The notes under the pieces were generated by a model, which was not told the origin of the DNA, ran no database searches, and saw nothing but the letters and a program-made list of their open reading frames with translations. Both the position numbers and the translations under genes were made by a program. 64,000 nucleotides of DNA from Spirochaetota bacterium (GTDB lineage: Bacteria; Spirochaetota; UBA6919; CBDBPB01), in NCBI GenBank assembly GCA_965208615.1, contig CBDBPB010000004.1, forward strand, positions 256,001 to 320,000. Reading direction: 5' to 3'. Shown here one piece after another: positions 30,219 through 42,614 of the stretch (positions within the stretch are counted from its first letter, which is position 1; the number at the start of each line of letters is the position of its first letter).

Positions 30219-31226
30219 ATGGTTAAAAAAATTGTAATAATAATTATATCCGTAATAATAGGTCAACTAATATTATATGGAAAAGATAATAAAATAAAAT
30301 TACCGTATAACTTCTTGCCATCTGTTAAAATAGCTACCATGAACCTAAAAGCTTTAATAAGCCATAGAGCAGAAGTCCTTGGATCAAGAGGATATACCTT
30401 TAAAAATACATTCCTAAATAAAGAAATGCTAAAAAGACCATGGTATAAAAAACAAGATAAACCCTTAAATAACTTTTCTATTAAAGAAAAAAAATATATT
30501 AGCAGACTAACCAAACAAATAAAACAAATAAAAAAACTACTACTAATCAAAAGAAGAATACAACTAAAAAGATTACTAAAAAACTCAATGATTATCAAAT
30601 TCGACCTACTAGCCGACCTCAATGCCAATGGCTATCACGAATATATTGCCATTTGCTCAACCAAGTTTAATAACATATCCAAAAAAAAACTTAGGCAAAG
30701 TGAAGGATATCAAACATATTACACTAGGTCAAATAAGCTTTATCTTATGGTATTATTAAAAAATAACAATAAAACAATACTCTCGCATATTAAAATATCT
30801 AAAATGCCTTTTGGTATAGCAGAATATATAAGCGACTTTCAAACAGGCTATTACCTCGATAATGGCATGGAACAAATTAAAATAATTGTCCACACTTTTC
30901 AACTCAAAAATCAAGTGAATAAAAAACACTTTCAGTTTATGTATTTATTCTCTCTTAACAAAAAAAGACTAGCCAATATTTTTTCTTATCCAATTTACTC
31001 CTCTCATATAAAAGGAGATCAAGAAAAAATAATTGAGTATAACGTAAAATTTAAAAATATTGAAGGTAGAAAACAAAATGAAATTATACTCTCTAAACAA
31101 ATTACTAAAAGAAATTATAACTATAATATCTCACCACAAAAACCAAATTATCAAACAAAAGTATACAAAGGAAAACAAATATACTTTGTATATGATAAAT
31201 TTATAAACGCTTATAAAAAAAAATAA
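30219..31226 (+). CDS. Hypothetical exported basic protein
   Basis: GAGG RBS, N-terminal signal/anchor, DLNANGYHEY (DxDxDG-like) motif. Confidence 0.7.
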   Translation: MVKKIVIIIISVIIGQLILYGKDNKIKLPYNFLPSVKIATMNLKALISHRAEVLGSRGYTFKNTFLNKEMLKRPWYKKQDKPLNNFSIKEKKYISRLTKQIKQIKKLLLIKRRIQLKRLLKNSMIIKFDLLADLNANGYHEYIAICSTKFNNISKKKLRQSEGYQTYYTRSNKLYLMVLLKNNNKTILSHIKISKMPFGIAEYISDFQTGYYLDNGMEQIKIIVHTFQLKNQVNKKHFQFMYLFSLNKKRLANIFSYPIYSSHIKGDQEKIIEYNVKFKNIEGRKQNEIILSKQITKRNYNYNISPQKPNYQTKVYKGKQIYFVYDKFINAYKKK

Positions 31227-32988: not shown

Positions 32989-33888
32989 CTATTCTTTTTT
33001 AATTAACTTTCCTTTAATAGAATAAGTATAGACCTTAATCCTACCCTCTTTATCATAGTTATATATTTCATAAAAATCTGGTTTTCCGTTTTCTTTATAG
33101 AAAGTAGTTTTCCACTTTTGCCCGTTTTTATATTCATCTACATACTTAAATAACACAGAGTTTAGCTTATACTGCTCAACTTTAACTTTATTTTCATTAT
33201 CGTCAAAATATGTTTTTGAAGAAAGAAAATTATTATTGTTATAAACAAACATAAACTTAAGAATACCTTTTTTTGTGTATTCTCTTTTCATATAGTAAAT
33301 TAAAGAGTCCTGATTGTTTTTGATTATATAATAACTTTCTTTTATTAATCTATTTTTATTGTCATAAATATATTTTTTTTTAACCTTTTCGTTATCAAAT
33401 AATGAAGCCTGCTTTTCTTCGATTATATTACCCTTTTTATCATAAAGAAAAATGTGGTATCTATCTGGTTCACCTAACTCATTATAAAACTGTTCCTTAG
33501 CCAGTTTTCCTTTATTATAAAATCTAGCAAATATACGTTCACCATCATAGTTAAAGCCCTCAGCACGTACCTTATATTTATCCTTATAAAAAAAGTTAAC
33601 ATAGCTATTACGTTTTCCATATTCATCATAACTTTCCTGCTTAATACTACGCCCATTTTTATCATAATATACCCTAATATGATCCTTATTTTTAGCCTCA
33701 TCCTCAGTTAACAAGCCTAAATAAGTAACACTGCTATCCATGGCAATGCTAAGATCTTTATAATATAAAACTTTTACCCATTTATCCTTTTTTTTAGCAG
33801 GAGGTATAATGGTACTATCATCCTCATCCACACTGCAAAATGAAAATACTATTGTCAATATACTAAATAAATAACCTAGTCTTTTCAT
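32989..33888 (-). CDS. Lipoprotein with YD/MORN-like beta-hairpin repeats
   Basis: Spirochaetal-style lipobox VFSF-C; repeated YYDKNG, YDEYG, YNELG, YDKKG units. Starts 2 nt after the tldE stop. Confidence 0.7.
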   Translation of the reverse strand: MKRLGYLFSILTIVFSFCSVDEDDSTIIPPAKKKDKWVKVLYYKDLSIAMDSSVTYLGLLTEDEAKNKDHIRVYYDKNGRSIKQESYDEYGKRNSYVNFFYKDKYKVRAEGFNYDGERIFARFYNKGKLAKEQFYNELGEPDRYHIFLYDKKGNIIEEKQASLFDNEKVKKKYIYDNKNRLIKESYYIIKNNQDSLIYYMKREYTKKGILKFMFVYNNNNFLSSKTYFDDNENKVKVEQYKLNSVLFKYVDEYKNGQKWKTTFYKENGKPDFYEIYNYDKEGRIKVYTYSIKGKLIKKE

Positions 33889-35209: not shown

Positions 35210-36571
35210 TTATTTACCAGCTACTACAACATCCCCAACTAAAATATGAGGAGCCCCAATAGTAACAGGAAGTCCATTTTGTCCCGCTTTACCACAACCA
35301 CCAAGACCTCCAAAATGCCTTAGATCATTGCCAATAGCCTTAATATTCTTAAGAGTATTAAAAACATTTCCAGTTAAAACCACATCACGTAATAACCTTT
35401 TAATTTTACCACCCTTTACTTCATATGCTCTTCCAGCAGTAAAAGTAAACATTTCTAAATTAGTCATTCCTCCAAGAAAGTCAATACAATAAACTCCATC
35501 GCCCATAATACTTAAGAGCTGTTCAAAGGTATAGTCCCCTTTATCAATAAAAGTATTAGTCATTCTTACAATAGGGGGATATAATGGATTAATTGCTCTT
35601 GCATTACCAGATAAGCCTTCTCTTAGCTTATAAGCGGTTTCCCGGGAGTTAAGTCTTCCAAATAACCTACCATCCTTAATTAAATAAGTTTTTTTTCCTT
35701 TAATACCCTCATCATCATAAGGCGTATGCCCAGCTAAACCCTCTATGGTAGCATCATCTATAATATTTAGCTTATTAGAAGCAAATTCTCTTCCTATAGT
35801 CATCATTTTTTGTATATCTTCGTTCTCATAAATAAAATCAGACTCAGATAGATGTCCAAATGCCTCATGAGCAAATACACCAGCCATCTTAGGGTCAAGA
35901 ATTACATTATAAACTCCCTTTTCAACCTGTTTAGCGGATAACAAATCAATAGCGTTTTTAGAAACCTTATCACAATAAGACTCTTTATCCTCTACCACGT
36001 CAAAGCCATAATAACCAGCATCAGAATAAGATGAATGTTGAATATTCATATCATCCTTTGCCATGGCAGATAATGATATACCAGTAAAAAGTTTTTCTAT
36101 CTCAATAGAACTGCCTTCAGAATTAACAAAATACGACCTTTTAAGTTCATCTTTATAGCTCACCCTAGAACTATTAATTTTGTTATGTGCCAATATTCTA
36201 TTGTTATACCCCTCCATAAGATTAACCTTCTCATCCAGGGGGATTTCATTAGAGTTTTTTTCATTAGAATATTTAAGTGATTTTTTTATAACTCCCTCAG
36301 ACTTTAATAGAGAGTTTTTTTTGCTGTTAAAATATTTAAGATTATCCAGGGCCTTTTTAATATGTTTTTCAATATCTTTATCGTTAAAAGATATAAATGA
36401 CCAATCCCCATTCTTAAACACCCTAACATTACCAGAGGATACTTTAGCAGATCCAACATTATCAAGTTCTTTTCCGAGATATCCTATATAGTTAAATTCT
36501 TTTTCTTCAAAGTGAATTTCTATATAATTATCCGAATATTTATTTATTACCTTTTCTAATAGTTCTTTCAT
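35210..36571 (-). CDS. tldD: TldD metalloprotease
   Basis: HEAFGH zinc motif, YDDEG, SGNARA, RMTNT, CGKAGQ...GAPH. ATG at 36571 preferred as start. Confidence 0.93.
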   Translation of the reverse strand: MKELLEKVINKYSDNYIEIHFEEKEFNYIGYLGKELDNVGSAKVSSGNVRVFKNGDWSFISFNDKDIEKHIKKALDNLKYFNSKKNSLLKSEGVIKKSLKYSNEKNSNEIPLDEKVNLMEGYNNRILAHNKINSSRVSYKDELKRSYFVNSEGSSIEIEKLFTGISLSAMAKDDMNIQHSSYSDAGYYGFDVVEDKESYCDKVSKNAIDLLSAKQVEKGVYNVILDPKMAGVFAHEAFGHLSESDFIYENEDIQKMMTIGREFASNKLNIIDDATIEGLAGHTPYDDEGIKGKKTYLIKDGRLFGRLNSRETAYKLREGLSGNARAINPLYPPIVRMTNTFIDKGDYTFEQLLSIMGDGVYCIDFLGGMTNLEMFTFTAGRAYEVKGGKIKRLLRDVVLTGNVFNTLKNIKAIGNDLRHFGGLGGCGKAGQNGLPVTIGAPHILVGDVVVAGK

Positions 36572-36607
36572 AATCAACCCTGTTAAAAGGTATAATAGTT
36601 ATACAAA

Positions 36608-36636
36608 AACATACAAAAAAAGAGTTTCTTTGTCAA
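36608..36636 (-). promoter_or_regulatory. sigma70-type promoter for the tldD operon
   Basis: TTGACA-17 nt-TATGTT on the minus strand. Confidence 0.5.
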
Positions 36637-36862
36637 CACGTTTAACAGCTATAGTAAATAATATTAGAAATATACTATTATAATTATAACTAACTAATTA
36701 ATAACTTATTTTATAAGTTATCCTTATATTACTATGTTTTATATATACTATGTTATGCATATAAAGTCAACATGTTGTTAATCAGCCTAATAACGAAAAT
36801 AACTATCGTTAACTAAAACTTGCATAATAGTCTTATCTTATAATATTACTAACAAAAACAGC

Positions 36863-36891
36863 TTGAAAATTGTTGTAGTTTTTATTAATAT
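36863..36891 (+). promoter_or_regulatory. sigma70-type promoter for the NERD-TPR gene
   Basis: TTGAAA-17 nt-TAATAT, just upstream of the 26-bp repeats. Confidence 0.45.
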
Positions 36892-36902
36892 GTAGATTGC
36901 TT

Positions 36903-36980
36903 TATAGTATCAACAAAAATGGCTTAAATATAGTATCAACAAAAATGGCTTAAATATAGTATCAACAAAAATGGCTTAAA
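36903..36980 (+). repeat. Three exact 26-bp tandem repeats (TATAGTATCAACAAAAATGGCTTAAA)
   Basis: Copies start at 36903, 36929 and 36955 with no spacers; the array ends 1 nt before the ATG at 36982. Confidence 0.95.
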
Positions 36981-36981
36981 T

Positions 36982-39126
36982 ATGGAAATTATTAAACGTG
37001 GTACAATATTACCACAAGAAGAAGTAGTTGCTAATAAAATACGCCAACTACCAAACAACTGGTGGTGTATTGCAGGAGATAGTAATAGGTTTACCTTTAA
37101 AAAAGGTTATGGTAGTCAAATAGATTTCTTAATTATATCCCCAAAGGGAGTTTTTTTAATTGACTCCAAAAATGTTAGTACCATAGAACTTAGTGAAGGT
37201 AATCTAGTAAGTTTTTATAATTCATCAGGCAAGCAAATTAGAAAAAAACGAGAAAATCCTGTTGAAGAAGTAATAGAAAATAAATATAATGCAAAAGACT
37301 GGCTTAGAAATAAAGGTATTAAAGACCTATTAACCCCCGATAACAAAGATTTAAAAGTATATATACACGGATTAGTTGTTATCTCTAACGATAACGTAAA
37401 ATATAAAAATTGTAGTCTAAAACAGTTAAACTATTACTCTCATAAATATAAAACATTAATCCCAATAGAAGAGCTAAATAAAGACTTTTTTGAATCTATT
37501 GATCTCCCTCCAAACTGCAAAAAACTAACCAAAGAAGAAATGTGGACTCTATATAAAATATTTTATAACCCCGATATGAACTTTTCTCAAATCCTTACAG
37601 AGGTTAAGCGTGAGGCTGATTCTTTAGTACAAGAAAAATATGTCTTTTTTGAGAAGGTACGTATTTTAGAAAATGAAAACCTTAACCTAAATAAAAAGGT
37701 TGATGAGCTTGAGGGTACTAGGAATAACCTTATTACAATGAACCAAGACCTTAATGATAAAACTAACCTACTAGACAATCAAGTAAAATCTTTATCCAAG
37801 GAAATAGCCTTATCTAAAGAGTTAAACAAAATATTAAAAGAAGGAAATACTAAATATGAAAATATTGAAAATGACCTAAAAATAACTACTGATAAAGCTA
37901 ATACCCTTAGAGCAAAAATAATAATATTAGAATCAGAAAATAAAAAACTTATAAAAAAAACAGAAAAACAAAAACAACATAATCAACTAACCATTTTTAA
38001 AATTACATCAGTAATATTAGCCAGCTTATTAAGTATATGGGTAATATATTTCTTTGTAAAAGTACCCACTAATAACGGTATTATAGAGGTTTATGGCTCT
38101 AGAAAGATATTTTATAGATTAGAGAAATACTACCCCTCCATTAGAAAGCTATATGAAAATAAGAACTATAATAAAGCAATTCAATTTTGGCAAAATAATG
38201 TATTAGCCGGTAAAGATTTTAAATCTCAGGATATGCATGGCTATGATAATATTTTTTTCTATTTGGCAGTATCTTATCAAAAGAAAGGCTCTTTGGATAA
38301 TGCTATAAAATATTATGATATTTTTACTGAGCTTTCCCAAAATAGAAACCATAAAAAACTACTAGAGGCATACCTTAATAGAGTAGATATACATAAAAAA
38401 AAGAAGGATATACCTCGTGCTATAGGGGCTTTACAGGATGCTAAAGAAATTGTAAAAAATATATTTAAAAACTCCAATGAAAAACCTTTATGGGATATCC
38501 GTATTTATAACTCATTAGCAGGAGTTTATAGGCTGGTTGGGAGTTTACGCCTTGCTGAGCAAAAGGACCTGGGTATAAAAAATCCATATGAGTTGGCTAT
38601 GACTAATTATTATAATGCTATTAGAATAGCGTCTAGGGTTAAAAATTATATTGTTGAATCAAAGGTTCTTTTAGAAATTGCAAATATGTTTTTAAAGGAT
38701 AAAAAAGACTATAGAAGAGCCATTAAAAAGTTTGATGCCATTATTACCTTTTTAAAAAAAAATAAAAACAACTTTGACAAGGCTGATAAAAACTCTATAG
38801 ATAGAATAAGAATGACCGTATATCATGGTTTGGGAGTTGCTTTCGCTAATATAAATAATAATATTAATGCTGAACAAAACTACTTAACCGCTATTGAGAT
38901 TAGTGAAAATTATAAAGATAAAATATATGAGGCCACTTTTAGACTTAATCTTGCTAATTTGTATAAACATCTCAAAAAATATAGTAAGGCACAATATCAG
39001 ATTGAAAAAGCATATAGTATTGCCCAAAAGCTTTATAAACAAAAAAAGCTTTCACAGCCCTACTTTGATAGATATGCTGATACGCTTGATCAGCTCACTA
39101 AGTTATATAAAATTAACAATAAGTAA
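36982..39126 (+). CDS. NERD nuclease-domain / coiled-coil / TM / TPR protein
   Basis: NERD motifs QEEVV...QIDFLIISPKGVFLIDSKN...ENPV; coiled coil at about aa 205-335; TM ITSVILASLLSIWVIYFFV; TPR array to the C-terminus. Confidence 0.8.
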   Translation: MEIIKRGTILPQEEVVANKIRQLPNNWWCIAGDSNRFTFKKGYGSQIDFLIISPKGVFLIDSKNVSTIELSEGNLVSFYNSSGKQIRKKRENPVEEVIENKYNAKDWLRNKGIKDLLTPDNKDLKVYIHGLVVISNDNVKYKNCSLKQLNYYSHKYKTLIPIEELNKDFFESIDLPPNCKKLTKEEMWTLYKIFYNPDMNFSQILTEVKREADSLVQEKYVFFEKVRILENENLNLNKKVDELEGTRNNLITMNQDLNDKTNLLDNQVKSLSKEIALSKELNKILKEGNTKYENIENDLKITTDKANTLRAKIIILESENKKLIKKTEKQKQHNQLTIFKITSVILASLLSIWVIYFFVKVPTNNGIIEVYGSRKIFYRLEKYYPSIRKLYENKNYNKAIQFWQNNVLAGKDFKSQDMHGYDNIFFYLAVSYQKKGSLDNAIKYYDIFTELSQNRNHKKLLEAYLNRVDIHKKKKDIPRAIGALQDAKEIVKNIFKNSNEKPLWDIRIYNSLAGVYRLVGSLRLAEQKDLGIKNPYELAMTNYYNAIRIASRVKNYIVESKVLLEIANMFLKDKKDYRRAIKKFDAIITFLKKNKNNFDKADKNSIDRIRMTVYHGLGVAFANINNNINAEQNYLTAIEISENYKDKIYEATFRLNLANLYKHLKKYSKAQYQIEKAYSIAQKLYKQKKLSQPYFDRYADTLDQLTKLYKINNK

Positions 39127-39177
39127 GCCTTTATAAAATATAATGTTTATTATTAGTATATTAAAACTATTATATAT

Positions 39178-39852
39178 ATGGGGGATTTTATGCATAACAT
39201 TGGTGTTGTCTTATCTGGATGCGGGGTATACGATGGGAGTGAGATTCACGAGGCTGTATTAACCCTTTTATCTATTGACAAAGTTAATGCTAAGGCTATT
39301 ATTATGGCTCCTGATATTGATCAGATGCATGTGATTAATCACCTAACTGGTCAAGTAGCTAACAACGAAAGTCGAAACGTTTTAGCGGAATCTGCACGAA
39401 TTGCCAGAGGAGATATTAAAAATATTAAAGATATTTCCCAAAAAGACCTAGATGCTCTTATATTCCCAGGTGGATTTGGTGCGGCTAAAAACTTGTCTAA
39501 CTTTGCTGTTAAAGGAAATGAATGCTCCGTAAATGAACAGGTCATAAGGCTCTTTAAAGAAATGGTTAATGCTAAAAAGCCTATAGGTGCTGTATGTATT
39601 GCTCCTGTTATTACCGCTAAGGCCTTTGAGAGTACTAATACTAAAGTCAGCCTAACCATTGGCAGTGACAAGGATACAGCTTCTGCAGTAGAAAGAATGG
39701 GAGCTAAACATATTAATTGTCCAGCTAAAGAGGTTGTTATTGATAAAGAAAATAAAATTATATCTACTCCTGCGTATATGTTGGACAGTAGAATATCTGA
39801 GGTTGCAGAAGGAATTGATAAGCTGGTAGGTGCAATAGTTAATATGATATAG
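39178..39852 (+). CDS. elbB: Glyoxalase ElbB (DJ-1/PfpI, ES1 family)
   Basis: Motifs LSGCGVYDGSEIHEAV, ESARIARG, PGGFGAAKNL, CIAP, STPAYM. True start may be ATG 39190. Confidence 0.95.
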   Translation: MGDFMHNIGVVLSGCGVYDGSEIHEAVLTLLSIDKVNAKAIIMAPDIDQMHVINHLTGQVANNESRNVLAESARIARGDIKNIKDISQKDLDALIFPGGFGAAKNLSNFAVKGNECSVNEQVIRLFKEMVNAKKPIGAVCIAPVITAKAFESTNTKVSLTIGSDKDTASAVERMGAKHINCPAKEVVIDKENKIISTPAYMLDSRISEVAEGIDKLVGAIVNMI

Positions 39853-40708: not shown

Positions 40709-41632
40709 ATGAAAAAAATAATTTTATTTATACTAATTATACTAAATACTGGGCTAATTCTTAAATGCGAAGATAATGACTATCCTAAATACTATAAAAA
40801 ACGAAGGTGGTGCAAAAAAACTAAAGAATTTAGTTATAGAATGCCTATAGAAGAAACTAAGGCGAAAAAAAACTTCAATAAGCTGTTTAAAAAAGGGAAT
40901 TATATTGTTCACGGACAATTTAAAGATCCAGAATATCCTATTGGAAACTGGTTTTACTATGACTCAAAAAATAGAGTGGCTAAAGAAGAGGCTTATAAAA
41001 ACGCCTATATAGCTGATGAGTTCGTCTATGAGTATGATAGTAATTCTAATAAGCTCTCTGAAACACATTATGTTTATAGTGATAAATCTGAAAAGAGGCT
41101 TCGTATTAAGTCTGAATATAGTTATGACTACAAGATTAAAAAAAAAGGTCTATTAATTGAGGCAAGGCACTACAATGCGGCAAGACTGGATGAGGTTATA
41201 AGGTATGAATACTTAAACAATGGACTCCTAAGAAAAAAAAGTCTTTACTTATATGATAACAGACTAAAAAGTTATAATTTATATAGCTATAATCCAAGTG
41301 GACTACTTAAACAGGAAAAAATATATACAACAAAAGGCCTAGAGAAAAATGCCGTATATAAACTTAATCTAGTTATAACCTATAGTTATAACAATAAAAA
41401 TAGCTTAGTTAAACGAGAAAAATATAAGCCTAATAAAGGCGATTATAATAAGCTGGTTGATATTTCAGAATATACCTATAACAAAAAGGATAACCTTATT
41501 AAAAAAGTAGATCTTAACTCAAAAAAAGAAAAGTTATCAGAAATCCGTTTATACTACGATAAATATAACTGCAAGTCTAAAGAGGAGTACTATAACGGAA
41601 AAGGTGAATTAGAAGATATAAAAAACTTTTAA
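40709..41632 (+). CDS. Putative lipoprotein with YD-like repeats
   Basis: Signal peptide ending LILK-C; repeated YEYDSNS, YSYNPSG, YTYNKKD, YYNGKG units. Confidence 0.7.
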   Translation: MKKIILFILIILNTGLILKCEDNDYPKYYKKRRWCKKTKEFSYRMPIEETKAKKNFNKLFKKGNYIVHGQFKDPEYPIGNWFYYDSKNRVAKEEAYKNAYIADEFVYEYDSNSNKLSETHYVYSDKSEKRLRIKSEYSYDYKIKKKGLLIEARHYNAARLDEVIRYEYLNNGLLRKKSLYLYDNRLKSYNLYSYNPSGLLKQEKIYTTKGLEKNAVYKLNLVITYSYNNKNSLVKREKYKPNKGDYNKLVDISEYTYNKKDNLIKKVDLNSKKEKLSEIRLYYDKYNCKSKEEYYNGKGELEDIKNF

Positions 41633-42263: not shown

Positions 42264-42614
42264 TTAGATTGTTAACAAATGACCTATTTTAGCATCTAGC
42301 TTTTTTTTAAGAAAGTCAAAAAGCATACGACTAATGGCAAAAATCAGCTCATAATCGGGTACTCTTTTGTCTAGCTCCAAAAAGCCAATACTCCAATACT
42401 CATTATAATCATATACGCTAAGATAAACACCTTGATATTCTAAAATATACTTCCATGTACTTTCTTCAGTCCTAAGGCTATTACCATTTGGTTTACCAAA
42501 TTTTTCTTTCATGATAGTAAATAAAGCACCAGCATTATTATTATTAATAAAAATGCCTCCGCTATCTTCCAGAGCATATTTGGATACCAGGACTTTTCGA
42601 AATCTCCCTTCCAT
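42264..42614 (-). CDS. Hypothetical protein, probably sigma28-controlled
   Basis: AGGAG RBS, 116 aa, FliA-type promoter upstream. Confidence 0.7.
   Translation of the reverse strand: MEGRFRKVLVSKYALEDSGGIFINNNNAGALFTIMKEKFGKPNGNSLRTEESTWKYILEYQGVYLSVYDYNEYWSIGFLELDKRVPDYELIFAISRMLFDFLKKKLDAKIGHLLTI

Follow-up and report, generated by a model that had tools for sequence, protein, structure and literature searches.

A rare NERD-TPR protein of uncultured Spirochaetia has an architecture that suggests a membrane-tethered nuclease

The DNA analysed here (the window) is a stretch of 64,000 nucleotides from the Spirochaetota bacterium assembly GCA_965208615.1 (contig CBDBPB010000004.1, positions 256,001 to 320,000), and all coordinates below are positions in it unless a contig is named. 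At 36982-39126 on the forward strand it holds a single open reading frame (ORF) of 714 amino acids (aa) plus a stop codon, whose product, here called the NERD-TPR protein, combines a NERD domain, a coiled coil, a transmembrane (TM) helix and an array of tetratricopeptide repeats (TPRs). An initial reading made without database searches (the sequence-only reading) had proposed that this gene is a one-gene defence or abortive-infection system acting across the cell envelope. Our analysis points to a real and rare architecture that suggests a mechanism, in a genomic context that argues against the defence reading. The annotated start codon is sound, because the N-terminus of every homologue reads MEII(R/K)RG. 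In Pfam at E <= 1 the protein matches solely NERD, TPR-type families and ANAPC5, and NCBIfam holds no model for it. On these predicted domains it is a NERD-family member carrying TPRs, and the positions of its parts are collected in Table 1.

Several lines of evidence bear on the fold of the N-terminal head. The Pfam NERD family (PF08378) matches aa 13-135 with an E-value of 6.9e-11 (43.1 bits against a gathering cut-off of 22.1), and the head modelled alone reached a predicted local distance difference test score (pLDDT) of 84.8 and a predicted template modelling score (pTM) of 0.84. In this model E13 lies within the helix 11-21, D48 immediately before the strand 49-53, and D61-S-K63 ends the strand 56-63, which is the canonical placement of the E/D/(D/E)xK residues in the PD-(D/E)xK fold; these positions correspond to the residues E13/E14 (QEE), D48 (IDF) and D61-S-K63 (IDSK) quoted in the sequence-only reading. 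Comparison of the head with 48,161 chains by VIA-align returned a list made up largely of PD-(D/E)xK proteins, with best Z scores of 9.1 (root-mean-square deviation (rmsd) 4.4, 141 residues aligned), 8.2 (rmsd 3.2, 135 aligned) and 7.9 (rmsd 3.4, 123 aligned). The list includes two Schlafen chains (Z 9.1 and 8.2), Upx (7.9), VC1899 (7.3), Can2 (7.2), Can1 (7.1) and NucS (7.0), followed by BstEII, Bax1, Hjc and many restriction enzymes. Since a Z of 7-8 is a typical best score and can arise from a common arrangement, the support for the fold comes from the consistency of the whole list together with the Pfam match, and not from any single row.

Other searches with the head gave concordant or null results. 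The best match among the viral models of BFVD is a NERD-annotated protein (E 2.8e-4), and the best ESM Atlas clusters for aa 1-340 are NERD families, at 0.88, 0.79 and 0.79, all below 0.9 and thus leads only. Foldseek found no match for the head model in the PDB at E <= 0.001. Searching the PDB with the protein sequence by itself yielded 14 matches at E <= 1; these all fell within the TPRs, and not one reached E <= 0.001. A profile covering the first 218 N-terminal positions matched a single entry, at E 0.77. Neither search turned up a solved close relative. Overall, the predicted cytoplasmic head is, by sequence and model, a NERD-type PD-(D/E)xK domain with a complete predicted active-site set. 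The conserved extension that follows the NERD core is 45-68% identical to its closer kin and contains C144, C179 and H154. Five head residues, C29, H129, C144, H154 and C179 (within 36982-37581), are invariant in the five closest sequences and not in distant members; this Cys/His set might form a metal site specific to the sub-family, or a buried cluster.

A full-length AlphaFold2 model, built on an alignment of 13 sequences, has a mean pLDDT of 82 and consists, ahead of the TPRs, of a mixed alpha/beta head (aa 1-200) and helices at 201-292, 311-328 and 331-360, with low confidence around 288-337 and 360-373. The coiled-coil stalk predicted from these helices would span some 20 nm, taking 1.5 A per residue. 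When aa 1-372 were modelled as two chains together, as the sequence-only reading had suggested, they paired through a parallel, in-register coiled coil with heptad-spaced contacts at 200-337 and through further head contacts at 111-115 and 185-192. The score of this model was 0.43 against 0.23 for the best of three controls; the contacts agreed between runs to at least 96%, and the partner pLDDT was at least 83. The mark for this score is reached by 20 of 30 same-chain pairs and by 1 of 23 single-chain solved proteins, counts that hold only roughly here because a custom alignment was supplied. Parallel coiled coils are common in solved structures, and the pass may partly reflect likeness to them.

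Within the 714-aa protein the only 19-residue windows with a Kyte-Doolittle value of at least 1.6 fall at 336-363, and the hydropathy scan found no N-terminal hydrophobic or signal-like segment. The strongest hydrophobic segment lies at the equivalent position in all 13 members of the aligned family, 11 of which have no other window at or above 1.6, and in all 13 the 15 residues before the helix carry an excess of lysine and arginine (K+R) over the 15 after it. The C-terminal part has no cysteine in 9 of the 13 members and exactly two in the other four. Taken together, the position of the helix, the K+R bias, the cysteine counts and the lack of a signal peptide favour a cytoplasmic nuclease and extracytoplasmic TPRs; the protein is thus predicted to be bitopic, crossing the inner membrane once, with an N-terminus that faces the cytoplasm and a C-terminus that lies outside.

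The C-terminal half matches the Pfam families TPR_12 (E 1.3e-15, 57.7 bits against a cut-off of 30.1) and TPR_2 (29.8 bits against 27), and AlphaFold2 builds it as 20 helices over 372-713, with pLDDT mostly above 90. Foldseek aligns this part to the eight-repeat TPR domains of LGN/Pins over 321-356 columns (E about 2e-9; 1.8e-9 for LGN) and, more weakly, to peptide-binding Rap proteins. With repeat hidden Markov models (HMMs) above their cut-offs and a model in the form of a solenoid of helical hairpins, the C-terminal part has the features of a TPR repeat protein.

Most of the layout given in the sequence-only reading withstood this analysis. The N-terminal NERD domain with an intact PD-(D/E)xK set is borne out by the Pfam match, the head model, the VIA-align list, the BFVD match and the motif positions; the reading had named an N-terminus of another fold as grounds for abandoning it, and the Pfam NERD match and the VIA-align list place the head in the PD-(D/E)xK fold. 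Its coiled coil of about 130 aa reappears as a parallel dimeric coiled coil of some 137 residues, its single TM helix at about aa 340-358, without a signal peptide, as the one hydrophobic segment of the scan at 341-359, and its roughly 330 aa of TPRs as a 20-helix solenoid of about 340 residues. Likewise, its placement of the TPRs outside and the nuclease inside agrees with the predicted N-in/C-out charge bias of all 13 members.

Table 1. Positions of the NERD-TPR protein parts and of nearby features in the window.
Feature	Residues	Position	Strand	Basis or remark
Sigma-70-like promoter candidate (weak), TTGAAA-17-TAATAT		36863..36891	+	9/12 consensus positions; just 5' of the tandem repeat; lead only
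Tandem repeat		36903..36983	+	Tandem Repeats Finder (TRF): 26 bp x 3.1 exact copies, 100% matches, score 162
NERD / PD-(D/E)xK core	1-135	36982..37386	+	Pfam PF08378 and N-terminal model
Catalytic candidates	E13; D48; D61; K63	37018-37020; 37123-37125; 37162-37164; 37168-37170	+
Head extension	136-200	37387..37581	+	conserved; pLDDT about 89-93
Predicted coiled-coil stalk	201-337 (~137 residues)	37582..37992	+	AlphaFold2 helix and two-copy model
Predicted single TM helix	341-359	38002..38058	+	Kyte-Doolittle peak 2.32
TPR solenoid	372-714 (~340 residues)	38095..39123	+	predicted outside the cytoplasmic membrane
ElbB (DJ-1 family glyoxalase)		39178..39852	+	NCBIfam E 4.5e-100, 334 bits against cut-off 180; 51 nt downstream

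The NERD-TPR family is very small: 1.84 billion representatives include about a dozen of its clusters. Searched in full with HMMER, these representatives gave 65 hits at E <= 1e-3, 14 of them at E <= 1e-10; among the stronger hits, 11 proteins besides the query match through their NERD end (two of these are partial), while the fragment P0013, like most of the weaker hits, matches through the TPR part only. A word-indexed search of 5.8 billion clusters returned four relatives at 39-50% identity. Of the 13 aligned members, 12 match NERD and 11 match TPR_12 in Pfam, and the architecture is therefore a property of the family. The sequence-only reading had not recognised it as a characterised system, and the literature searched yielded no description of a NERD-coiled coil-TM-TPR protein, within a search that left subscription journals mostly outside, as well as the supplements that list SNIPE and ShdA homologues.

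The distribution of the gene is correspondingly narrow. It occurs in 4 of 41 related whole genomes and in four of the five genomes sampled from one class of uncultured Spirochaetia, in a lineage-wide, single-copy pattern. When a sample of 401 genomes of the phylum was searched with the N-terminal profile, 13 matched at E <= 1e-5, but the full-length form was seen only in the same four genomes (273-359 bits, ORFs of 730-756 aa), the other nine being weak matches to the NERD core only (26-42 bits, ORFs of 254-520 aa). Scans of genome and metagenome contigs added, beyond the known loci, only a 1.5-kb fragment (L028) and a locus of the type seen in genome G004 (L029), and of the 65 pattern matches in viral contigs not one codes for a relative.

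Conservation is uneven along the protein. Identity to six closer kin is 63-70% in the NERD core and 45-68% in the extension at 136-200, and drops to 23-44% along the coiled coil and 27-36% across the TPRs; the nuclease head is better conserved than the adjacent housekeeping protein ElbB (58%). The catalytic motif is intact in 11 of the 13 members; D48 is invariant in all 13, and D48, D61 and K63 are all kept in the eight closest sequences. The two degenerate members, P0012 (F at position 61) and P0015 (Q at 61, Y at 63), nonetheless retain every part of the architecture.

Surrounding the gene are housekeeping genes, as the sequence-only reading had noted. A pair of TldD/PmbA-like genes lies upstream in divergent orientation, and ElbB, a DeoD-like phosphorylase, a lipoprotein-like ORF and HPr lie downstream; SerRS, a class A penicillin-binding protein (PBP1), a CHASE2 cyclase and Fe-S oxidoreductase subunits are found farther away. 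PADLOC gave no hit on 10 neighbours, and Pfam shows housekeeping neighbours with nothing defence-related or mobile among them. The block formed by the NERD-TPR gene, ElbB, the phosphorylase and the lipoprotein-like ORF is collinear between the genome of the window (G000) and G001, a genome from another family within the order; ElbB, the phosphorylase and the lipoprotein-like ORF share 58, 40 and 35% identity, respectively, between the two. The pairing with ElbB recurs in G001 (58% identical, 21-nt gap) and not in G002. YggS is encoded divergently upstream of the gene in G001, G002 and the metagenome fragment L028, and on a separate contig in G000. Composition is native, with a GC content of 0.282 against 0.313 for the genome (z -1.24), a GC3 z of -0.65 and a codon-usage distance that ranks at the 19th percentile among 316 comparable ORFs. 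These observations indicate that, as judged by synteny and composition, the gene is long-resident and vertically inherited in one small class of uncultured Spirochaetia and is not a mobile defence module.

A scan of 36400-39400 revealed no terminator-like site, either between the NERD-TPR gene and ElbB or elsewhere, and co-transcription of the two is possible. Promoter-like sites across the scanned region are not enriched (26, against 19.1 +/- 5.3 in shuffles). The leader of the gene is unusual, as the sequence-only reading had observed, and the repeat in it is real: a unit of TATAGTATCAACAAAAATGGCTTAAA is present in 3.1 copies without mismatch, abutting and overlapping the start codon (last base 36983). 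Direct reading of the sequence shows a two-codon mini-ORF, ATG-GCT-TAA, inside every 26-bp unit, and in the last unit the stop of this mini-ORF sits 2 bases 5' of the true ATG. The unit has no further copy elsewhere in the 2.46-Mb genome with up to 3 mismatches allowed, and inspection of the orthologous leaders of G001 and G002 did not find it upstream of either gene. The array has the look of a triplication of the translation-initiation region by recent slippage, an event that may affect translation initiation. Among public sequencing runs, the stretch was found in two runs of one study, with contigs that end at the 26-bp repeat, and no RNA run is listed as containing it. An Rfam scan of 36400-39300 returned a single snoRNA row, dismissed as chance (25.1 bits against a threshold of 60, E 0.57).

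Some further ORFs in and beyond this region deserve mention in their own right. Two ORFs of about 300 aa, at 32989-33888 (-) and 40709-41632 (+), flank the block and have lipoprotein-like N-termini and repetitive, Y/K/N-rich sequences; neither has a match in Pfam, NCBIfam or PADLOC, and the second is syntenic in G001 at 35% identity. The idea that they are duplicated boundary marks was rejected, as their mutual similarity is not significant (E 0.063). ORFs at 42264-42614 (-, 116 aa) and 30219-31226 (+, 335 aa) likewise have no Pfam or PADLOC match. In the G004-type clade, the homologue of 755-756 aa adjoins or lies near an NYN protein with a TPR end (L008 4978-6723 (+) and L029 4563-6374 (-); Pfam NYN E 3.3e-27 and 2e-13), the middle of which resembles a coiled coil by eye. 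Here, too, a nuclease-like domain and TPRs are combined in one protein; as a general partner of the NERD-TPR protein the NYN protein was rejected, with only TPR-level matches in G000 and G001 and nothing in G002. Convergent with the G004 homologue, and overlapping it by 4 nt, is an ORF for a protein of 1399 aa (L008 6761-10960 (+)) with two adenylate/guanylate cyclase domains, an AAA_16 domain and a MalT-like TPR region.

We tentatively favour, at a little short of an even chance, the reading that the NERD-TPR protein is a resident, membrane-tethered, conformationally gated endonuclease with a non-mobile role. In such a protein, the membrane tether on its stalk of about 20 nm would keep the two nuclease heads off most of the chromosome, and a protein or peptide ligand would bind the periplasmic TPRs, the signal being relayed through the TM helix and the coiled coil. 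This relay would alter the mutual placement of the two heads, and hence whether they cut or not. Its role would most likely be a lineage-specific resident function that ties an envelope event to nucleic acid being cut or bound close to the membrane. Two published NERD proteins, SmdA (PMC9040797) and TbLrRP2 (PMC12702573), are likewise anchored in a membrane and have resident roles; for these and all other cited papers we draw on extracts of the text.

Several observations weigh against this reading. The gene was not found in G003, an 88% complete member of the class whose YggS locus lacks it, so it is either not indispensable to every class member or unassembled there. Catalysis is not required for whatever roles P0012 and P0015 have, because these proteins have lost catalytic residues. 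Gating and signalling through the stalk are features that we infer from the architecture only. Vertical inheritance is compatible with an immune role, a fast-evolving ectodomain combined with a conserved nuclease has also been reported for SNIPE (extract of PMC13190303), and NERD domains are described in extracts of published papers as enriched in defence islands.

The main rival is that the gene is a chromosomally fixed single-gene anti-phage system, which we consider unlikely though far from negligible. The periplasmic TPRs might recognise a phage tail or injection protein and so activate a cytoplasmic NERD dimer, or, on the model of SNIPE or ShdA, the tether might place a nuclease that is otherwise kept apart where it can cut DNA as it enters. 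Membrane-bound single-protein nucleases are a proven form of defence, as the extracts on ShdA (PMC10270631) and SNIPE (PMC13190303) describe, and the catalytic set of the NERD-TPR family, intact in 11 of 13 members, would allow such a role; the reported enrichment of NERD in defence islands points the same way. PADLOC itself gave a sole match, to positions 41-153 of the 1403-position PglW profile, that is, to its NERD part, at E 0.027, and no PADLOC family fits at E <= 0.001. On the other hand, the locus is conserved across families of the class and has native composition, none of the viral-contig matches is a relative, and two full-length members lack catalytic residues. On geometric grounds, moreover, a 20-nm stalk would hold the nuclease off the site of entry at the membrane. 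The survey of proximity to defence islands that the sequence-only reading had proposed likewise went against it: none of the 10 neighbours is a defence gene by PADLOC, their context by Pfam is housekeeping, and there is no sign of a defence island in the conservation of the locus or among viral contigs. The claim of a one-gene defence or abortive-infection system thus fared poorly, given the weak PADLOC match, the lack of defence context, the vertical synteny, the native composition and the two degenerate members.

In function the NERD-TPR protein would be most like ShdA and SNIPE, while in layout it is like the ToxR-type bitopic receptors. As described in extracts of its report, ShdA, the core of the Shield system, is a single membrane-bound protein with a cytoplasmic nuclease of the PD-(D/E)xK superfamily (PMC10270631), and its authors put forward changes in the envelope as a possible trigger; the CoCoNuT paper (PMC10542128, extract) describes a TM helix plus a long coiled coil for ShdA-type proteins. 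The same ShdA extracts present a protein with an RmuC domain, an N-terminal TM anchor and no large ectodomain, found in defence islands of Pseudomonas (PMC10270631), whereas the NERD-TPR protein has an N-terminal NERD domain, a central TM helix (341-359), a TPR domain of 340 residues after it and a housekeeping context. Neither Pfam nor PADLOC gave an RmuC or Shield match. SNIPE, or PD-lambda-1, is also an inner-membrane-anchored nuclease, whose tether prevents self-cleavage, and its nuclease is the most conserved part and its membrane/adapter part the least, a pattern matched by the conserved head and divergent remainder of the NERD-TPR family (PMC13190303, extracts). According to the same extracts, SNIPE has the order TM-DUF4041-GIY-YIG, with a short periplasmic N-terminus, and is distributed patchily across phyla (PMC13190303), whereas the NERD-TPR family is confined to one class. 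Neither DUF4041 nor GIY-YIG was found by Pfam, and PADLOC gave no SNIPE match. Both ShdA and SNIPE have almost nothing outside the membrane, in contrast to the large outer domain of the NERD-TPR family.

A specific form of signalling, in which the protein is a trans-envelope receptor nuclease that binds a phage or own-envelope ligand at its TPRs and relays the event mechanically through the TM helix and the 20-nm parallel coiled coil, so as to switch a NERD dimer from inactive to cutting and back, we regard as doubtful, at roughly one chance in four. The layout finds its counterpart in ToxR and CadC, which have a nucleic-acid-directed N-terminal domain in the cytoplasm, one TM helix and a periplasmic sensor, in the same order of parts. 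The output of ToxR and CadC is a winged-helix DNA-binding domain that regulates transcription, whereas that of the NERD-TPR protein would be a nuclease on a long coiled coil, and no helix-turn-helix family matches the 714-aa protein in Pfam. The sequence-only reading had also pointed to the TPR arrays of Avs proteins as a parallel. Avs proteins are cytoplasmic, are built around a STAND NTPase and use TPR arrays as protein sensors joined to a nuclease effector. The part of the parallel that stands is the joining of TPRs, as a protein-recognition module, to a nuclease; the rest is weak, because no NTPase domain is present (Pfam finds no NTPase family, and the linker between nuclease and TPRs is a coiled coil plus a TM helix) and the topology prediction puts the TPRs outside the membrane. 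Neither a kinase domain nor a BREX neighbour was found that would indicate PglW of BREX type 2 or Pgl. The protein is therefore not a member of Shield, SNIPE, Avs or PglW, since it lacks a defining domain of each.

A second alternative, which we think improbable, is that the protein is a non-catalytic or mainly scaffolding factor linking envelope and nucleoid, or acting in cell division, as proposed for SmdA of Staphylococcus aureus. The NERD domain would then bind nucleic acid or protein, the coiled coil would be a spacer, and the TPRs would dock on periplasmic machinery. SmdA, compared here by description only, is membrane-anchored, has a long helix and a cytoplasmic NERD-like domain of partial homology, is needed for normal septum placement, and is conserved throughout one bacterial family as a monocistronic gene among unrelated genes (PMC9040797, extracts); the lineage-wide, single-copy pattern is common to both genes, and in P0012 and P0015 the architecture is complete although the (D/E)xK residues are missing. 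However, SmdA has 302 aa, an N-terminal TM helix and no ectodomain, and lacks several of the most conserved NERD residues, as far as the extracts describe it (PMC9040797), whereas the NERD-TPR protein keeps the catalytic set and adds a TPR ectodomain. The motif, intact in 11 of 13 members and kept at D48, D61 and K63 in the eight closest sequences, argues for selection on catalysis.

Less probable still is a membrane-associated ribonuclease, in which the NERD head would cut RNA and not DNA. TbLrRP2 of Trypanosoma brucei, like the NERD-TPR protein, combines NERD with a single TM domain; its NERD domain is required for rRNA processing, its authors argue for action on RNA, and both the TM domain and conserved charged residues of NERD are needed for it to function (PMC12702573, extracts). 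As the extracts describe it, it differs in being a eukaryotic protein of the endoplasmic reticulum and nuclear envelope that forms a heterodimer with a DEDDh protein and acts on RNA without TPRs (PMC12702573); that the precedent is eukaryotic and lineage-specific counts against this reading. The Schlafen chains at the top of the VIA-align list (Z 9.1 and 8.2) would fit a ribonuclease, but they are tied with many DNA nucleases, and most of the fold neighbours are DNA endonucleases (restriction enzymes, Hjc, NucS, Can1 and Can2). Sequence does not separate an RNA from a DNA substrate. Finally, that the hydrophobic helix does not span the membrane, or that the topology is reversed, leaving both domains on the same side or the nuclease outside, would fit the low AlphaFold2 confidence on either side of the helix but is very improbable, given a hydropathy well within the TM range over 19 residues, a helix position and N-in bias conserved in 13 of 13 members, and the unlikely export of a 340-residue N-terminal domain without a signal peptide.

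Membrane-tethered nucleases such as ShdA and SNIPE have recently been shown to tell self from non-self by location, and the NERD-TPR family adds to this theme a large, fast-evolving outer protein-binding domain and a long, dimeric inner stalk as predicted here. Because it has these two features, it is a natural candidate for a nuclease controlled across the membrane. If the receptor-nuclease reading were true, a single polypeptide would use ToxR-like signalling logic with DNA cleavage in place of transcription as its output, and if gating were shown, bitopic receptors would gain a new class of output and synthetic biology a compact part. There is also a lesson in the locus, in that an intact nuclease joined to a TPR array is insufficient for a defence call without genomic context. 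If the protein instead serves as a resident factor between envelope and nucleoid, just one other bacterial membrane NERD protein with a cellular role would precede it, and its gene would be a marker for a poorly known class of spirochaetes.

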